From Escherichia coli (GTDB lineage: Bacteria > Pseudomonadota > Gammaproteobacteria > Enterobacterales > Enterobacteriaceae): a stretch of DNA of 7,140 nt. The notes beneath the pieces are model-generated. The model worked only from the letters and a program-made list of their open reading frames with translations, was not told the DNA's origin and made no database searches. The stretch lies in NCBI RefSeq assembly GCF_003334385.1, contig NZ_QOWN01000073.1; one strand, written 5' to 3'. Shown here piece after piece: positions 1-7,140 of this stretch (within the stretch, counting starts at the first letter, position 1; each line of letters starts with the position of its first letter). Position numbers and translations under genes: made by a program.

Positions 1-32
<32 letters not shown>

Positions 33-775
33 CCATTTTTACTGTAAAACCGTGGCCAATATTACTTGACCACTACAAGTTAGCTGAGATGTTAAGCTGC
101 TGGCTGCATACACCTTGCCAAATCTAATCGCTGTTATCTTAACCAATTTCCAGGATACAAGGGGGCGATTACTGAGAATGCTCTCAGACTGTCACTCACC
201 AGATCGGATACGTTTACTGCTCAGGCGGATGCTTAATGCACTCTGTTCAGGTGCATTGCAGGTACGTTTTATGTACGCAGGTTATACGCCAGTTATCAGG
301 GATAACCCTGTGAGTACAACGCAATCTGTTGCTACTGGGTAGACTGGTCTGCTGATCACACTCACAGATTTATTTCACATATATGAACTCATGTGTTTGA
401 GCTCTCTTATATATTTATAATACCAATCAGACAGTCTTATCCCACCAGTGATACCTGTCGCCTGCCCACAGGTCACGGGCTGATGCACCACAACCGCCTT
501 CAAAAACAACTCTGCAATTATCAGAACGCCAGTTTTCCCCTTGTCTCACGAAAGTCCTCCCTCCTTTATCACGTGCGCGTGCGGAAGCATCGTTTCGCAA
601 CAATCACCCGACATACCGGTACGGCTCAGCCACCGCAATCCCCCCGTTTATCTCCTGACGGTCACATTCCCGATTATTTTTTACGTTTTTCCCCGGTTGT
701 TATGCCGGGGAAGGTGGTGCGTTGTTTTCATCACCAACGCCGGTTGAGATTAACAACATCCGGAGGAACATTTTC

Positions 776-982
776 ATGAATACCCCAGTTTCACTGATGG
801 ATGACCAGATGGTCGACATGTCGTTTATCACTCAGCTGACCGGCCTGACCGATAAATGGTTTTACAAGCTCATCAAGGATGGTGCCTTTCCTGCCCCCAT
901 CAAACTGGGCCGTAGCTCCCGATGGCTGAAAAGTGAAGTGGAAGCCTGGTTGCAGGCACGTATTACACAGTCCCGTCCGTAA
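776..982 (+). CDS. alpA: AlpA-family prophage regulatory protein (small HTH DNA-binding protein, 68 aa)
   Basis: ATG at 776 preceded by GGAGGA at 762-767 (8-nt spacer); stop TAA 980-982. Translation MNTPVSLMDDQMVDMSFITQLTGLTDKWFYKLIKDGAFPAPIKLGRSSRWLKSEVEAWLQARITQSRP has the size and single helix-turn-helix layout of AlpA/Vis-type regulators. The track ORF 722..982 adds 18 N-terminal codons with no RBS, so the internal ATG is preferred. Family call is from recall, not a search. Confidence 0.7.
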   Translation: MNTPVSLMDDQMVDMSFITQLTGLTDKWFYKLIKDGAFPAPIKLGRSSRWLKSEVEAWLQARITQSRP

Positions 983-1067
983 TTCCTGACCGTTATCCGT
1001 TCAACCGCAGCAAAGGCATGATCCGGCCCCCGGAGGCATTTTGCTGCGCGCTAAAGGAGAGAATATT

Positions 1068-1640
1068 ATGCAAAAACTTGAAAACCGGTGTGAGCTGCTG
1101 CTCATCCAGCATCAGAAATGGATGACAAACGTGACGAGGCTTATCGTCGCTCATGGAATGGGGGCTCCGCATCTTCATGGTTATCACCGCCTGACCCTGG
1201 CCCACTTTTTTCTGCCAGAAAAAGGCACCATCATCTCAGTGGCACCACAGGGACTCTATCAGGTCGTCAACCCGGGAACACCACCGTTCATTCCTGCCAT
1301 TCAGGAAGGGTTAATGACCAGCATTCAGACCCATGAAATCATGCTGCTTACACATTTTAATCTGGGCGGCGTTTTACTCAGTGAGCTACATCGTCTGGGT
1401 GAAAACCGGCTGGCAAACAGGCTGAACAGCCTGCTCCGGCGTTTCAACGATCGTGATCTCTACCACACGCTGATATGGCTGTGCTGGTATGATCTGATGT
1501 GTGCTCACTCCATGCAGCCCTGGACTGAAGAGTTAAAGCATAAATCACATGCAGAGCTTGAAAACTGGGCTGTGGCGCGCAAACGGGAAAAGCGCGAGCT
1601 GGAACTGATGATTGACGAGTACCTGTTATACGCCTGTTGA
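1068..1640 (+). CDS. hypothetical protein (190 aa), function unknown; probably co-transcribed with the AlpA-like gene
   Basis: ATG at 1068 preceded by AAGGAGA at 1054-1060 (7-nt spacer); stop TGA 1638-1640. The track ORF starts at a TTG (1041) upstream of the RBS, so the ATG is preferred. Only 85 bp separates it from the alpA stop, same strand. I do not recognise the protein; it may belong to the small proteins often found beside alpA in such islands, but that is unverified. Confidence 0.6.
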   Translation: MQKLENRCELLLIQHQKWMTNVTRLIVAHGMGAPHLHGYHRLTLAHFFLPEKGTIISVAPQGLYQVVNPGTPPFIPAIQEGLMTSIQTHEIMLLTHFNLGGVLLSELHRLGENRLANRLNSLLRRFNDRDLYHTLIWLCWYDLMCAHSMQPWTEELKHKSHAELENWAVARKREKRELELMIDEYLLYAC

Positions 1641-1678
1641 TTCATAACGCTCCCGGGCCTCCGCACACTTACTTTTCC

Positions 1679-1712
1679 TCCGTCACCCTCATGCAGAAGC
1701 GGGGGTGACGGG
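1679..1712. other. GC-rich hairpin between the convergent 190-aa and 496-aa genes (possible bidirectional terminator or processing site)
   Basis: Inverted repeat tccgtcaccc (1679-1688) / gggtgacggg (1703-1712), 9-10 bp stem with ~14-nt loop, in the 120-bp gap between the two convergent stop codons (1640 and 1761). No clear U-tract on either strand, so not a canonical intrinsic terminator. Confidence 0.3.
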
Positions 1713-1760
1713 CATACTGCGATACCACCACTGAATAATCCGTCTCAGCAACAGGGAACA

Positions 1761-3251
1761 TTATAAGCCAAAGGATTGCTCATGCCATCTTATCAGTTTC
1801 TGGCTGTAGCACGCATTCAGTTCAGGCAGCGTGATATTGTTTATTTCGGAAAGCAGGACATAGGTGGTTTTTCCTTCCTGCACGACAGAGAGCCTGAGTT
1901 GAGATGCAAGAATGTTCAGCAGGACGTTCAGCTTTTTCCTGTTCCGGAACCGGCCCGGGCCACACTGGAGAATATAATTTTTCCTGACACGGGGCGGGCA
2001 TTCTCCGCGGCACTCCTCAATGAGCCAGTCGAACAGCTCCTCGGCGTCCTTCTGCTGCAGTTCAGATTCATCAGGTAACGCAAATAATTTTTTATATTCA
2101 TCTGTGTACCACGAACTTATTACGACAGCAGACGTCATGATATCGGCAGAGATTTTCCCTTCACCCTGACTGAAATACTGCAATAACGCAGCAATTCTCG
2201 CAATGTTTTCTGTTTTTTTTGAAACATGCCCCCGAAACTGGCTTAAGGGTCCGGAAGGAGACAAATCCTGCTCCAGAACATTATAGTGATCAATAAATAT
2301 TTTTTGCGCTTCAGGAGAAAAATGCAGACAATAACGTTCATCCTTACTGGATTTTTCAATACTGCCTCTGGCCAGTTCCATTAATCGTTCATGAAATGCC
2401 GTTAATGATCCTCCCGGGGTCACAGCTCCGTTAATAAAGCGTTTCCCCTGCGTGGTGGCAGGTTTACTGATTAGACAACGGGCAAGAAAACCACTGTCCC
2501 TGGCAACAGAACCTTTTCGCTCCATATATCGGTCAAAAAGACCGGGTTGTACCATGAGGGATAATGTCATTCTAGCATTTTCAATCATCTGTTCGGGTTC
2601 ATTCTTTCTGTCCACCGACAATACGGAGCCATCCCACATTTTGTTAATAAAAGGCAGCTCAGACAGGGTATACCCATCAAATATTATACCGGCTTCATCA
2701 GACATGATACCCACTGAACGCCACTGACCACAAAGCTGATCTTTAATTGCTGCTGTCGTGGCATCATTAAAAATGAATTTATATCTTACAGGTTTTTCCC
2801 CTCTGTTTTTCTGAAGCGCTTCCAGTTGTCTGAGCGTTTCTGACTCATCCGCGCCTTTGCGGAGTTCTTTATTCAGTTTTGACAACAATGCTTTTTTCTG
2901 CGCCTTTAAAAGCTCTTCCTTATTTTTCCATATCGTCAGTTCATTTTTGTGTCTGGAATATAACAGCATCTCCTGCTGGTACAGGGGCTCCATTAATAAT
3001 TTGTCCACTGCGGTTTTTCGTTCTCCGGACTCAGCAAGCGTCAGTAAGAAAAGAGAAACCGGCCCCCGCAGTGTATTCAGTCTGCAGACATCAATCAGAT
3101 TCTGGCAGACAAGTGAAACAGCGCCCAGGGCAGATGCTGCCACAAGCCCCAGGGGAGCCTGCGTGATTTGCTGAGCTTCAATAACGGCATCACGAATGAG
3201 TGGAGGCAGCGAGCTCAGGGGAAACTCATCAGGATACTGAAAGTATGGCAT
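1761..3251 (-). CDS. P-loop NTPase-like protein, tentatively DUF3987 / YfjI-like family (~496 aa)
   Basis: Long uninterrupted minus-strand ORF in AT-rich DNA, where long chance ORFs are unlikely. Preferred start is ATG at 3251-3249 with GAGGT 5 nt upstream; the track ORF starts at GTG 3269. Stop TAA (complement of 1761-1763). Protein contains a degenerate Walker A-like LAESGERKT and a Walker B-like GIMSDEAG, plus an N-terminal PLSSLPPLIRDAVIEAQQITQAPLGLVAASALGAVSLVCQ stretch that I recall as typical of DUF3987/YfjI-like proteins. Family assignment is recall-based and unverified. Confidence 0.55.
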   Translation of the reverse strand: MPYFQYPDEFPLSSLPPLIRDAVIEAQQITQAPLGLVAASALGAVSLVCQNLIDVCRLNTLRGPVSLFLLTLAESGERKTAVDKLLMEPLYQQEMLLYSRHKNELTIWKNKEELLKAQKKALLSKLNKELRKGADESETLRQLEALQKNRGEKPVRYKFIFNDATTAAIKDQLCGQWRSVGIMSDEAGIIFDGYTLSELPFINKMWDGSVLSVDRKNEPEQMIENARMTLSLMVQPGLFDRYMERKGSVARDSGFLARCLISKPATTQGKRFINGAVTPGGSLTAFHERLMELARGSIEKSSKDERYCLHFSPEAQKIFIDHYNVLEQDLSPSGPLSQFRGHVSKKTENIARIAALLQYFSQGEGKISADIMTSAVVISSWYTDEYKKLFALPDESELQQKDAEELFDWLIEECRGECPPRVRKNYILQCGPGRFRNRKKLNVLLNILASQLRLSVVQEGKTTYVLLSEINNITLPELNACYSQKLIRWHEQSFGL

Positions 3252-3744
3252 AATGACCTCACAACACACAGAACATAAAGTACCGCAACTATTGCTACTA
3301 ATAGCAAAAATAGCAGCAGAATCAATACAGGATAAAAATTTCTGTCGATTTTCAGATTAAATAATAACCATTCGGTATTTTGTCGCTAAAGAATGTTAGA
3401 ATGAATCTGTGCGTCTACGGGCGCTCTCCGGAACACACATGTTGATTAATTTTCACACAACAACGTACCAGCAAAAAGCATCATCCAGGGTATTGCAGGT
3501 ACGGGTTTCCTGCCGGGAATAAACATAAACAGTTTCCCCGGAGTAACGCTTTCAGAAAACTGCCCTCCTGAAGAAGAATAAAATAAAGAAGATGACAGTT
3601 CCTGCACTGAATGCTGAGTACAATATTCTATGGACAGGATGACATTTTTATAAATAACAAAAACCATTTAATACTGATACATCAATAAAATACTTCCTCC
3701 CTGCTGACACAGATAAAATGCAACATTTTTTCTTCAAATACTTC

Positions 3745-3753
3745 TGTATAATC
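3745..3753 (+). promoter_or_regulatory. candidate sigma70 extended -10 element (TGTATAAT) inside the AT-rich region
   Basis: tgTATAAT at 3745-3752 on the + strand with no good -35. AT-rich DNA produces many such matches, so this is weak. Confidence 0.2.
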
Positions 3754-4084
3754 GCCAGCCAATGATGAGAATGGATTAAAATAACACTTCTTCGACAAAC
3801 ACAAAAACCAGCCTTCATTTTCACATCATCATCCAGTTTTAATTAAACCCTGACGAGCGACAGTATTTCAGTTCAGGAATTAAAAGCCAGCTATTACTCA
3901 GTAAAAACACCACCAACTAATAATATCTCAGCAGATATTTCCTGACCAGGATGACACATTTATTAAAGATTTTTAACAGGACACTTCACATTACTGAACG
4001 CTATTCCGACAGTATCACTACACAAATAAAAAAGGGAACTGGATAAATATTCATGCCGGAAGAATGGTGTAACAAAAGCATTTA

Positions 4085-4097
4085 ATCATTACGTGCG
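4085..4097. repeat. 13-bp direct repeat, copy 1 (atcattacgtgcg)
   Basis: Exact 13-mer atcattacgtgcg at 4085-4097, repeated at 4209-4221; the two copies flank the 30-bp palindrome. Confidence 0.6.
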
Positions 4098-4110
4098 TAT
4101 TCCTCTCTAT

Positions 4111-4140
4111 TCGATCACGGTTTGGCCAAACCGTGATCGA
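4111..4140. repeat. perfect 30-bp palindrome (15+15, no spacer) carrying two GATC sites
   Basis: tcgatcacggtttgg|ccaaaccgtgatcga is exactly self-complementary; GATC at 4113-4116 and 4135-4138; central TGGCCA. Read directly from the sequence. Confidence 0.9.
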
Positions 4141-4208
4141 TTCAGATGCCATTTTGCAAGTACGCATGACCCGGAAGGGAAACACTTAACAACATGGTAT
4201 CAACAGAT

Positions 4209-4221
4209 ATCATTACGTGCG
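4209..4221. repeat. 13-bp direct repeat, copy 2 (atcattacgtgcg)
   Basis: Exact second copy of the 13-mer at 4085-4097. Confidence 0.6.
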
Positions 4222-4527
4222 CACTCTTATAAAAATACACAGCAGAAGCAAGATAACTCTAAACGTAAATTTAATATCTCCCACTGACTGCCCCGACAAT
4301 ATACTGAAAAATACTCACCTCAGTAAACATAAACACACCTGATAATCAGGCTGCAAGATGAATATTTTTCTCCTTTACGGAGTAATCAGCCTGCTGTTTA
4401 ACAATAACCGCGTATTTTCATGGAAGGATATCACCCAATAACGGATAACTCCTGCCCTCCTTCATGTTAATACGCAACATCCCCATCGATTCCAAACAAT
4501 TTCAGACAGATATTATCTCCGTGAATC

Positions 4528-4567
4528 CCCCGCCACCTTTCCGGTGTGCGGGGTTTTGTCTTTTTTC
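4528..4567 (+). terminator. intrinsic (Rho-independent) terminator-like hairpin plus T-tract immediately upstream of the GTPase start codon
   Basis: Stem ccccgccacc (4528-4537) pairs with ggtgtgcgggg (4543-4553) as 10 bp with one bulged T, loop tttcc, followed by ttttgtctttttt (4554-4567). GTPase ATG is at 4583. Confidence 0.5.
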
Positions 4568-4582
4568 ACCGGGAATACATGT

Positions 4583-5455
4583 ATGAATCCGTCTGATGCC
4601 ATTGAGGCAATTGAAAAACCACTTTCTTCCCTGCCTTACTCGCTTTCCCGTCACATCCTGGAACATCTGCGCAAACTCACCAGTCACGAACCCGTGATTG
4701 GCATTATGGGTAAAAGCGGGGCCGGTAAATCCTCACTCTGTAATGCGCTGTTTCAGGGGGAGGTCACCCCGGTCAGTGATGTTCACGCCGGCACCCGGGA
4801 AGTGCGGCGCTTCCGTCTGAGTGGTCACGGTCACAGCATGGTTATCACTGACCTGCCCGGGGTGGGCGAGAGCCGGGACAGGGATGCAGAGTATGAAGCC
4901 CTGTACCGTGACATTCTGCCTGAACTGGACCTGGTGCTGTGGCTGATTAAAGCCGATGACCGGGCCCTGTCTGTGGATGAGTATTTCTGGCGACACATCC
5001 TGCAGTGCGGACATCAGCAGGTGCTGTTTGTGGTGACACAGGCCGACAAAACGGAGCCCTGCCATGAATGGGATATGGCCGGCATTCAGCCCTCTCCCGC
5101 ACAGGCACAGAACATTCGCGAAAAAACGGAGGCGGTATTCCGTCTGTTCCGGCCTGTACATCCGGTTGTGGCCGTATCGGCCCGCACCGGCTGGGAACTG
5201 GATACGCTGGTCAGTGCGCTCATGACAGCGCTTCCCGACCATGCCGCCAGTCCCCTGATGACCCGCCTGCAGGACGAGCTGCGCACGGAATCTGTCCGCG
5301 CTCAGGCCCGTGAGCAGTTTACCGGTGCGGTGGACCGGATATTTGACACAGCGGAGAGCGTCTGTGTTGCCTCTGTTGCACGCACGGTTCTGCGTGCCGT
5401 CCGTGACACAGTGGTCTCTGTTGCCCGCGCGGTATGGAACTGGATCTTCTTCTGA
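4583..5455 (+). CDS. yeeP: YeeP/YkfA/YfjP-family GTPase (50S ribosome-binding GTPase-like, 290 aa), apparently intact
   Basis: Translation MNPSDAIEAIEKPLSSLPYSLSRHILEHLRKLTSHEPVIGIMGKSGAGKSSLCNALFQGEV... contains G1/Walker A GKSGAGKSS, G3 DLPG and G4-like TQADK. I recognise the sequence as the island GTPase found directly upstream of flu. The track ORF 4544..5455 begins inside the upstream hairpin; ATG at 4583 is the more plausible start. Stop TGA 5453-5455. Confidence 0.88.
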   Translation: MNPSDAIEAIEKPLSSLPYSLSRHILEHLRKLTSHEPVIGIMGKSGAGKSSLCNALFQGEVTPVSDVHAGTREVRRFRLSGHGHSMVITDLPGVGESRDRDAEYEALYRDILPELDLVLWLIKADDRALSVDEYFWRHILQCGHQQVLFVVTQADKTEPCHEWDMAGIQPSPAQAQNIREKTEAVFRLFRPVHPVVAVSARTGWELDTLVSALMTALPDHAASPLMTRLQDELRTESVRAQAREQFTGAVDRIFDTAESVCVASVARTVLRAVRDTVVSVARAVWNWIFF

Positions 5456-5539
5456 ACCTGTTGTGGATGATGTCCTCCTTGCCTCTGAGTCTGCTCACAA
5501 AAGCGCTGTTTTCGTTACTGTCTCTCTTGTCCGTGCAAT

Positions 5540-5610
5540 AGCTTGATAATAGAATAAAACGATCGATACCTATTTTATCGATCGTTAATATCGATCGCTA
5601 TACTAATAAT
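5540..5610 (+). promoter_or_regulatory. agn43 (flu) promoter / phase-variation switch: OxyR-binding region with three Dam GATC sites
   Basis: Three CGATCG motifs with GATC at 5561-5564, 5580-5583 and 5593-5596 (spacings 19 and 13 bp), ~200 bp upstream of the flu ATG. This matches the known Dam/OxyR epigenetic switch of agn43. Exact -35/-10 and TSS cannot be fixed from sequence alone; TTGATA at 5543-5548 is a candidate -35. Confidence 0.8.
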
Positions 5611-5760
5611 AACTCCTGTTAGCAACGTGCGCAGATACACACAGACATGAGATTCAGGGAACAACAGAGCCACACGTCAGAAACTTCCGTCAGCCGGACC
5701 TCCGGCACTGTAACCCTTTACCTGCCGGTATCCACATCTGTGGATACCGGCTTTTTTATT
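5567..5760 (+). ncRNA. isrC: agn43 leader RNA / IsrC-like small RNA (prematurely terminated flu 5' leader); boundaries approximate
   Basis: The 3' end is defined by the intrinsic terminator at 5724-5760; the 5' end is assumed to be the flu TSS near the GATC cluster. From memory, an sRNA (IsrC) is annotated in the yeeP-flu intergenic region of E. coli K-12; coordinates here are inferred, not verified. Confidence 0.4.
5724..5760 (+). terminator. intrinsic terminator in the flu leader, ~30 nt upstream of the flu start codon
   Basis: Perfect 12-bp stem gccggtatccac (5724-5735) / gtggataccggc (5740-5751), loop atct, followed by ttttttatt (5752-5760). Confidence 0.75.
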
Positions 5761-5788
5761 CACCCTCACTCTGATTAAGGAAATGCTG

Positions 5789-7140
5789 ATGAAACGACAT
5801 CTGAATACCTGCTACAGGCTGGTATGGAATCACATTACGGGCGCTTTCGTGGTTGCCTCCGAACTGGCCCGCGCACGGGGTAAACGTGGCGGTGTGGCGG
5901 TTGCACTGTCTCTTGCCGCGGTCACGTCACTCCCGGTGCTGGCTGCTGACATCGTTGTGCACCCGGGTGAAACAGTGAATGGCGGAACACTGGTAAACCA
6001 TGACAACCAGTTTGTATCCGGAACAGCTGATGGCGTGACTGTCAGTACCGGGCTTGAGCTGGGGCCGGACAGTGACGAAAACACCGGCGGGCAATGGATA
6101 AAAGCGGGTGGCACAGGCAGAAACACCACTGTCACCGCAAATGGTCGTCAGATTGTGCAGGCAGGAGGAACTGCCAGTGATACGGTTATTCGTGATGGCG
6201 GAGGGCAGAGCCTTAACGGACTGGCGGTGAACACCACGCTGGATAACAGAGGTGAGCAGTGGGTACACGGGGGAGGGAAAGCTGCCGGTACAATTATTAA
6301 CCAGGATGGTTACCAGACCATAAAACATGGCGGACTGGCAACCGGAACCATCGTCAACACCGGTGCAGAAGGTGGTCCGGAGTCTGAAAATGTGTCCAGC
6401 GGTCAGATGGTCGGAGGGACGGCTGAATCCACCACCATCAACAAAAATGGCCGGCAGGTTATCTGGTCTTCGGGGATGGCACGGGACCCCCTCATTTACG
6501 CCGGTGGTGACCAGACGGTACACGGAGAGGCACATAACACCCGGCTGGAGGGGGGTAACCAGTATGTACACAACGGTGGCACGGCAACAGAGACGCTGAT
6601 AAACCGTGATGGCTGGCAGGTGATTAAGGAAGGAGGAACTGCCGCGCATACCACCATCAACCAGAAAGGAAAGCTGCAGGTGAATGCCGGCGGTAAAGCG
6701 TCTGATGTCACCCAGAACACGGGCGGTGCACTGGTTACCAGTACAGCTGCAACCGTCACCGGCACAAACCGCCTGGGAGCATTCTCCGTTGTGGCGGGTA
6801 AGGCTGATAATGTCGTACTGGAAAATGGCGGACGTCTGGATGTGCTGAGCGGACACACAGCCACTAATACCCGCGTGGATGATGGCGGAACGCTGGATGT
6901 CCGCAATGGTGGTACCGCTACCACCGTATCCATGGGGAATGGCGGGGTACTGCTGGCCGATTCCGGGGCCGCTGTCAGTGGTACCCGGAGCGACGGAACG
7001 GCATTCCGTATCGGAGGCGGTCAGGCGGATGCCCTGATGCTGGAAAAAGGCAGTTCCTTCACACTGAACGCCGGTGATACGGCCACGGATACCACGGTAA
7101 ATGGCGGACTGTTCACCGCCAGGGGCGGCACACTGGCGGG
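5789..7140 (+). CDS. flu: antigen 43 (Ag43) self-associating autotransporter adhesin, 5' partial (first ~450 codons; continues beyond window end)
   Basis: ATG at 5789 with AAGGA at 5777-5781 (7-nt spacer). Translation begins MKRHLNTCYRLVWNHITGAFVVASELARARGKRGGVAVALSLAAVTSLPVLAADIVVHPGETVNGGTL..., the extended autotransporter signal peptide of Ag43 (predicted cleavage after ...PVLA, about nt 5944). It continues with the beta-helix passenger repeats (GGTA..T.VN.GG pattern). Recognised from recall of Ag43; no stop codon in frame before 7140. Confidence 0.95.
   Translation, partial: MKRHLNTCYRLVWNHITGAFVVASELARARGKRGGVAVALSLAAVTSLPVLAADIVVHPGETVNGGTLVNHDNQFVSGTADGVTVSTGLELGPDSDENTGGQWIKAGGTGRNTTVTANGRQIVQAGGTASDTVIRDGGGQSLNGLAVNTTLDNRGEQWVHGGGKAAGTIINQDGYQTIKHGGLATGTIVNTGAEGGPESENVSSGQMVGGTAESTTINKNGRQVIWSSGMARDPLIYAGGDQTVHGEAHNTRLEGGNQYVHNGGTATETLINRDGWQVIKEGGTAAHTTINQKGKLQVNAGGKASDVTQNTGGALVTSTAATVTGTNRLGAFSVVAGKADNVVLENGGRLDVLSGHTATNTRVDDGGTLDVRNGGTATTVSMGNGGVLLADSGAAVSGTRSDGTAFRIGGGQADALMLEKGSSFTLNAGDTATDTTVNGGLFTARGGTLA

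Follow-up and report, generated by a model that had tools for sequence, protein, structure and literature searches.

The DNA analysed here, a 7,140-nt stretch of Escherichia coli sequence hereafter called the window, contains a GTPase-family gene, the 5′ part of the antigen 43 (Ag43) gene agn43 (flu) and, between the two, a short regulatory region, the features of which are collected in Table 1. The agn43 gene continues past the end of the window, which covers its 5′ part alone. The encoded 450 residues match the NF033177 auto_Ag43 profile (NCBIfam ‘Ag43/Cah family autotransporter adhesin’) over profile positions 1–452 of 948 (E = 3.9e-238), and their score of 793 bits falls below the 1200-bit cut-off for full-length proteins only because the window end truncates the protein. 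Over these first 450 residues, which reach into the passenger, the protein is only 78% identical to Flu of E. coli K-12. The profile match and the identity to Flu mark the controlled gene as encoding an Ag43-family self-associating autotransporter.

At the nucleotide level, the window shares 99.8% identity with RefSeq loci that are annotated with agn43, and all near-identical loci lie on E. coli chromosomes. In the 99.8%-identical loci, the genes are ordered HTH regulator, hypothetical protein, YfjI-family protein, GTPase and agn43, and agn43 is intact (3123 nt) in such a locus. The nearest relatives of the window carry IS66-family elements 3′ of agn43 and not yeeR-irmA, in contrast to the agn43-yeeR-irmA operon of uropathogenic and ST131 strains (EC958 and CFT073 in PMC4807369). 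A sequence-only reading of this DNA had identified the locus as agn43, and the alignment to K-12 flu, the Ag43-family open reading frame and the 99.8% identity to annotated agn43 loci uphold that identification; the locus can securely be called an agn43 allele, carried by a CP4-44-like island. The dam and oxyR genes, both carried by E. coli, lie outside the window.

Two further observations concern the surroundings of the switch. The YfjI-family gene is separated from the GTPase gene by a 1.3-kb AT-rich stretch (3270–4582; 34–39% GC), which has no Rfam match and carries no annotation in the RefSeq loci of 99.8% identity. An IS4-like IS421 element splits the 99.8%-identical locus in two in E. 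coli G1/2, G6/7 and G8, where the adhesin bears no annotation beyond ‘AIDA repeat-containing protein’; the split suggests insertional inactivation in some relatives.

Table 1. Features of the agn43 regulatory region and its neighbouring genes (window coordinates).
Feature	Coordinates	Strand	Basis
GTPase-family (YeeP-like) gene, upstream neighbour, outside the switch	4583..5455	+	ORF list; homologous loci annotated ‘GTPase family protein’; weak GTPase family matches
-35 hexamer TTGTCC of the agn43 promoter	5527..5532	+	promoter scan; TTG invariant in all 18 aligned upstream regions
Putative OxyR half-site A, ATAGAATAAAACGAT, 8/10 to ATAGnTnnnAnCTAT, contains G-A-T of GATC-I	5549..5563	+	consensus scan
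-10 hexamer TAGAAT, within half-site A	5550..5555	+	promoter scan and alignment
Perfect inverted repeat with 11-bp arms, AACGATCGATA / TATCGATCGTT, symmetric about the operator dyad at 5572	5558..5586		terminator-like scan match on the minus strand; 5′ stem in fold
Alternative compact-register half-site A′, ACGATCGATACCTAT, 6/10	5559..5573	+	with half-site B, best 37-mer match
GATC-I (Dam site), start site placed at 5561 by homology	5561..5564	+	sequence search; K-12 isrC start at the aligned G
agn43 5′ leader RNA (IsrC / IS102), 204 nt	5561..5764	+	Rfam; K-12 isrC at homologous place
GATC-II (Dam site)	5580..5583	+	sequence search; invariant, CGATCG in 18/18
Putative OxyR half-site B, ATCGTTAATATCGAT, 8/10, spans GATC-II and GATC-III	5581..5595	+	consensus scan
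GATC-III (Dam site)	5593..5596	+	sequence search; invariant in all 21 loci
Intrinsic terminator: 12-bp stem 5724–5751, T6 run 5752–5757	5724..5757	+	terminator scan and RNA fold
Ribosome-binding site AAGGAA	5777..5782	+	by sequence; invariant in 18 sequences
agn43 5′ part: extended signal peptide and passenger domain	5789..7140	+	ATG at 5789; 450 codons without stop up to window end

Promoter, transcription start and leader

The promoter scan found a single promoter-like site in 5400–5850, with a 17-nt spacer between TTGTCC and TAGAAT and 9/12 matches. Among 18 aligned regulatory regions (described below), the -10 hexamer is TAGAAT in all except AR_0055 (AAGAAT) and strain 1506 (TAGAAC), that is, in 16/18. 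Transcription probably starts at 5561, a position supplied by homology to two characterized loci. In K-12, the first annotated base of isrC is the G of GATC-I, the counterpart of 5561 in the alignment. The second locus is that of strain EC958, which we take to belong to ST131. Its agn43 start was located by 5′ RACE 228 nt upstream of the ATG (PMC4807369); because 228 nt before the ATG at 5789 is 5561, and because the leader has the same length in ST131 strain MB1159 and in Nissle 1917 as in the window, the EC958 start maps to 5561. Since the -10 hexamer lies inside half-site A, the putative operator overlaps the promoter and, with the start placed by homology, the first transcribed nucleotide as well.

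Downstream of the start, Rfam model RF00124 (IsrC/IS102) matches 5559–5764 over its entire length (model positions 1–206 of 206) with 256.4 bits, where the gathering score is 46, and an intrinsic terminator ahead of agn43 closes the match. The IsrC ‘small RNA’ is the terminated agn43 leader. Its predicted fold (z = -4.3) consists of a 5′ hairpin and a strong terminator, and flu has been described as controlled by antitermination of IsrC (PMC5389530). The leader is 6 nt longer in the window than in K-12 (345 vs 339 nt between genes), and from 5603 to the ATG it is identical to that of MB1159 and Nissle 1917.

The GATC triplet and the putative OxyR half-sites

The sequence-only reading had located three GATCs, at 5561, 5580 and 5593, with CGATCG as the context of each, and they are found exactly there (CGATCG at 5560, 5579 and 5592), at about +1, +20 and +33 relative to the start given above. 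One other CGATCG occurs in the window, at 1448. The corresponding pattern, GATC-N15-GATC-N9-GATC, is present exactly once per locus in all 21 Ag43/Cah loci that were fetched. The same reading had taken CGATCG to be the signature of the switch, which holds as a description of the usual context and fails as a definition: among the 18 aligned sequences, CGATCG surrounds GATC-I in 16, GATC-II in all and GATC-III in 17, with CGATCA at GATC-I in K-12 and AR_0055 (and also in the ST131 and Nissle alleles, which were added later) and at GATC-III in the O103 sequence.

The number of GATC sites is a poor guide to their significance. At least three GATC within 36 nt arose in 209/2000 dinucleotide shuffles of the window, so that a bare cluster is not rare; three CGATCG in the same 36-nt span arose in 0/2000 shuffles, and the exact 19/13-nt spacing in 0/2000 and, in a second set, 0/200. 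With the bare cluster expected by chance about 10% of the time, the strength of the observation comes from sequence context and homology, not from the GATC count.

Scanning the window with the OxyR half-site consensus ATAGnTnnnAnCTAT, as given in PMC2909390 and PMC4856963, yielded only two 8/10 matches in 7140 nt, at 5549 and 5581, which lie 32 bp apart and overlap the triplet; the GATC sites therefore fall inside OxyR sites in the sense of a consensus match. As a pair, half-sites A and B match at 16/20 positions, and the next best pair over all tested spacings reaches 13. A centre-to-centre distance of 32 bp is canonical for reduced OxyR, for which half-sites centred at -148/-116 and -75/-43 have been described (PMC4856963). 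A compact 37-mer consensus can also be laid over the operator, at 5559–5595, where half-site B is paired with A′; at 14/20 this is the best such match in the window, tied with an unrelated AT-rich site at 391. OxyR may use either register, the compact one (5559–5595, 14/20) or the extended one (5549–5595, 16/20).

Under the extended register, every GATC shares bases with one recognition tetranucleotide, which is one base off consensus: CTAT has become CGAT at 5560–63 and at 5592–95, and ATAG has become ATCG at 5581–84. The fourth element, ATAG at 5549–52, agrees with the consensus and is shared with the -10 hexamer. As CGAT has its C and ATCG its G in common with the OxyR consensus, this arrangement accounts for the sites usually reading CGATCG. 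The opposite flanks of GATC-I and GATC-III fall outside the 15-mers and vary; GATC-II reads CGATCG in 18/18 sequences, which falls outside this account.

Around the operator dyad, CGATCG at GATC-I, where K-12 has CGATCA, makes the 11-bp inverted repeat perfect in the window; the K-12 and ST131/Nissle alleles have one or two mismatches in it, none of them compensated. The minus-strand terminator-like match that this repeat produces (5586–5558) was rejected as a real terminator and put down to the operator palindrome and the A/T-rich -10 region that follows it.

Conservation among alleles and comparison with other switches

The anatomy of the switch, its homology to known loci and its conservation can be read directly from the comparisons. 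The segment 5440–5810 aligns unambiguously to the yeeP-isrC-flu region of K-12, in which, as in the window, a GTPase/yeeP gene is followed by the switch and then by agn43. The two loci share identical -35 and -10 hexamers, two 8/10 half-sites, the IsrC leader with its terminator, and three GATCs in identical alignment columns with the 19/13 spacing. Within 5520–5612, they differ by eight substitutions (at 5544, 5545, 5565, 5569, 5587, 5598, 5601 and 5602), none of which affects a GATC, either promoter hexamer or any of the 20 OxyR consensus positions. The ST131 strain MB1159 and Nissle 1917 alleles show six operator differences from the window, which include AAGAAT as the -10 hexamer, CGATCA at GATC-I, CCCAT in place of CCTAT, and TACCGATC in place of TATCGATC.

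The operator segment 5520–5640 was searched in 5426 complete E. coli genomes and is present in 1915 of them, with a best identity of 97.5% over 121 nt; none of the complete RefSeq E. coli genomes searched holds an exact copy, and at least 3 of the 121 nt differ from each. Because the operator differs from that of all genomes searched, switching rates could differ too. The terminator and the 5′ part of the coding sequence are present in 4475 genomes. An operator-derived 47-nt pattern had no exact match in any other species’ representative genome in GTDB. The sole match in that collection was JAIJJM010000733.1, a 1560-bp E. coli-like contig that is binned as a Collinsella sp. metagenome-assembled genome and is probably mis-binned. 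This contig carries the end of the GTPase gene, a Cah-type operator and part of the leader, followed directly by the island genes for DUF957, DUF5983 and DUF4942, agn43 being deleted. A similar arrangement occurs in E. coli MB98 and GN4751.

The alignment of 18 consists of the window and 17 regulatory regions chosen across the identity range, among them Cah of O157:H7 and the HS-type and O103-type paralogues, for whose upstream DNA BLAST found no match. Two families emerge, flu-type and Cah-type, that are largely unalignable over the intergenic region. Identity between them is 0.85–0.98 over 5546–5565 and 5576–5595 (0.85–0.97 over half-site A), as against 0.32 over the central 5566–5575 and about 0.1–0.5 in the flanks; it rises again to 0.84–1.0 over the terminator and is also high at the ribosome-binding site. 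The Cah/Ag43 paralogues of O157:H7, HS and O103 have in common with the window the -10 hexamer, half-sites A and B, the GATC triplet, the terminator and the ribosome-binding site, whereas the remainder of their upstream region and most of their leader cannot be aligned to it, and their central 10 nt, within which the compact-register CTAT lies, differ. Half-site A reaches 8/10 in 17/18 of these diverse alleles and 7/10 in the remaining one, as does half-site B, and the arms of the inverted repeat are kept in both families, whereas the compact half-site at 5559–5573 drops to 1–3/10 in Cah-type alleles. The central 10 nt are free to vary, and what is conserved is the two half-sites and not the compact 37-mer register. 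A modest by-product of the comparison is that it isolates a compact conserved cassette, formed by the -10 hexamer and two OxyR half-sites 32 bp apart.

The conservation pattern between flu-type and Cah-type upstream regions leads us to a tentative suggestion, which we rate as possible though rather short of probable: the constrained, ancestral OxyR contacts may be those of the extended register of reduced OxyR (ATAG 5549 to CGAT 5563 and ATCG 5581 to CGAT 5595) and not those of the compact 37-mer, with three of the four tetranucleotides each altered by one base into a Dam site, and with the GATA and TATC flanks (5565–68 and 5576–79) perhaps serving also in the 5′ hairpin of the leader. If true, this would refine the textbook model rather than overturn it, and it may be implicit in published footprints.

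Other Dam/OxyR systems offer a comparison. At gtr of Salmonella and P22 and at opvAB of Salmonella enterica, half-sites matching ATAGnTnnnAnCTAT likewise carry GATCs; like half-site B, the gtr half-sites contain a pair of GATCs with 13-nt spacing (PMC2909390), and the opvAB half-site pairs are spaced 32 bp centre to centre, as A and B are (PMC4856963). In the gtr and opvAB systems, however, the promoter is preceded by three or four half-sites, which OxyR occupies in alternative ways, and OxyR also serves as an activator (PMC2909390), whereas at agn43 here one repressor site overlies the -10 hexamer and the start.

Proposed switch and alternative explanations

Taken together, these observations make it highly probable that 5527–5596 constitute the promoter and operator of agn43 and its Dam/OxyR ON/OFF switch. 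DNase I protection of the -10 region and of all three GATCs, together with repression by both redox forms of OxyR, was reportedly described by Wallecha et al. in 2003. In K-12, OxyR binds the unmethylated and not the Dam-methylated operator (PMC3764049, PMC4872104, PMC13337833); OxyR bound to the unmethylated agn43 operator represses the gene, Dam methylation of the three GATCs abrogates binding, and competition between Dam and OxyR after replication yields heritable ON and OFF states that switch at ~1e-2 to 1e-3 per generation (PMC3764049, PMC4872104, PMC13337833, PMC2909390). For EC958, repression by OxyR is experimental: agn43 mRNA rises 121-fold in an oxyR mutant (PMC4807369). The sequence-only reading had regarded the mechanism as established rather than novel, rightly so, as it is already set out in these publications (PMC3764049, PMC4872104, PMC13337833, PMC2909390). 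The Dam/OxyR switch at agn43 is textbook biology; its sequence anatomy is intact here, with all those defining features of the published switch that can be read from sequence present and nothing in the sequence speaking against it, and no new biology is claimed.

By analogy with the K-12, EC958 and CFT073 literature, OxyR would be expected to bind this allele in a methylation-sensitive manner and the allele to switch; its phase variation is a prediction from homology. In the mechanism we envisage, transcription would start at about 5561 from a sigma-70 promoter (-35 at 5527, -10 at 5550), and an OxyR tetramer would bind the half-sites at 5549–5563 and 5581–5595, covering the -10 hexamer, the start and all three GATCs. 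Because such a site covers the -10 hexamer and the start, its occupancy would block RNA polymerase. In the OFF state, unmethylated GATCs would permit OxyR to bind, block transcription and shield the sites from Dam; in the ON state, Dam would methylate the GATCs first after replication, OxyR would be excluded and the gene would be transcribed. Both states would be inherited, and rare switches would give rise to ON and OFF lineages. Transcripts would then have to cross the 204-nt IsrC leader, whose terminator at 5724–5757 may impose a second, post-initiation control before 5789. Ag43-dependent autoaggregation and biofilm phenotypes are accordingly predicted by the model to be heterogeneous within clonal populations, a point of relevance when this strain is phenotyped (see PMC3764049).

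Three alternatives deserve mention. The first holds that the main reason for the conservation of the inverted repeat around GATC-I and GATC-II is the 5′ RNA hairpin of IsrC, with a role in stability or antitermination, rather than the binding of protein to the DNA. We think this unlikely: although an 8-bp 5′ stem is predicted (5561–5568 with 5576–5583), and although GATA (5565–68) and TATC (5576–79) lie outside both 15-mers and are nonetheless kept in both upstream families, there are no compensatory changes, base pairs are broken by the A at 5565 in K-12 and by the A at 5565 and C at 5578 in AR_0055, ST131 and Nissle, and the centre of the repeat falls precisely on the operator dyad at 5572, where a symmetric protein site would have it. 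An RNA role would possibly add to the OxyR/Dam switch; it would not replace it.

Under the second alternative, the operator is a relic of the agn43 switch that is locked or irrelevant in this strain, through altered OxyR affinity or through disruption of agn43 beyond the window. Its lack of an exact copy in the 5426 complete genomes (best 97.5% over 121 nt) could be read in this way. Disrupted relatives exist as well, namely the frameshifted agn43 of HCM-22C-2 and the IS421-split copies of G1/2, G6/7 and G8, as do operator-plus-leader remnants with agn43 deleted, and single-base changes in half-sites can lock the opvAB switch (PMC4856963). Against these points, none of the substitutions relative to K-12 touches a GATC, a promoter hexamer or a consensus position, each half-site has the same 8/10 score as in K-12, the reading frame is open through 450 codons in the window, and agn43 is intact in a 99.8%-identical locus. 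We consider a relic very improbable, and a functional Dam/OxyR switch remains the preferred reading.

The third alternative attributes the GATC cluster to chance or composition, or takes it for a SeqA-binding cluster that has nothing to do with OxyR. It can draw on the roughly 10% of shuffles with at least three GATC within 36 nt, on a second three-GATC cluster inside a coding sequence (1449–1491) and on the modulation of switching bias at agn43 by SeqA (PMC13337833), but it is so improbable as to be negligible, and a chance cluster is rejected by context, spacing and conservation: exact spacing and CGATCG context occur in no shuffle, the triplet is invariant in 21/21 loci whose flanks have diverged beyond alignment, it falls on the one strong pair of OxyR half-sites that the window contains, and the central sequestration role belongs to OxyR and not to SeqA (PMC13337833).

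The second cluster, with GATC at 1449, 1455 and 1491 (1449–1494; CGATCG at 1448), lies in the coding sequence of a hypothetical protein at ~1067–1639, without any evident regulatory context. Across the window as a whole (1–7140), GATC is under-represented, with 15 sites against 27.2 +/- 4.3 expected from dinucleotide shuffles, all 200 of which contained at least 15.
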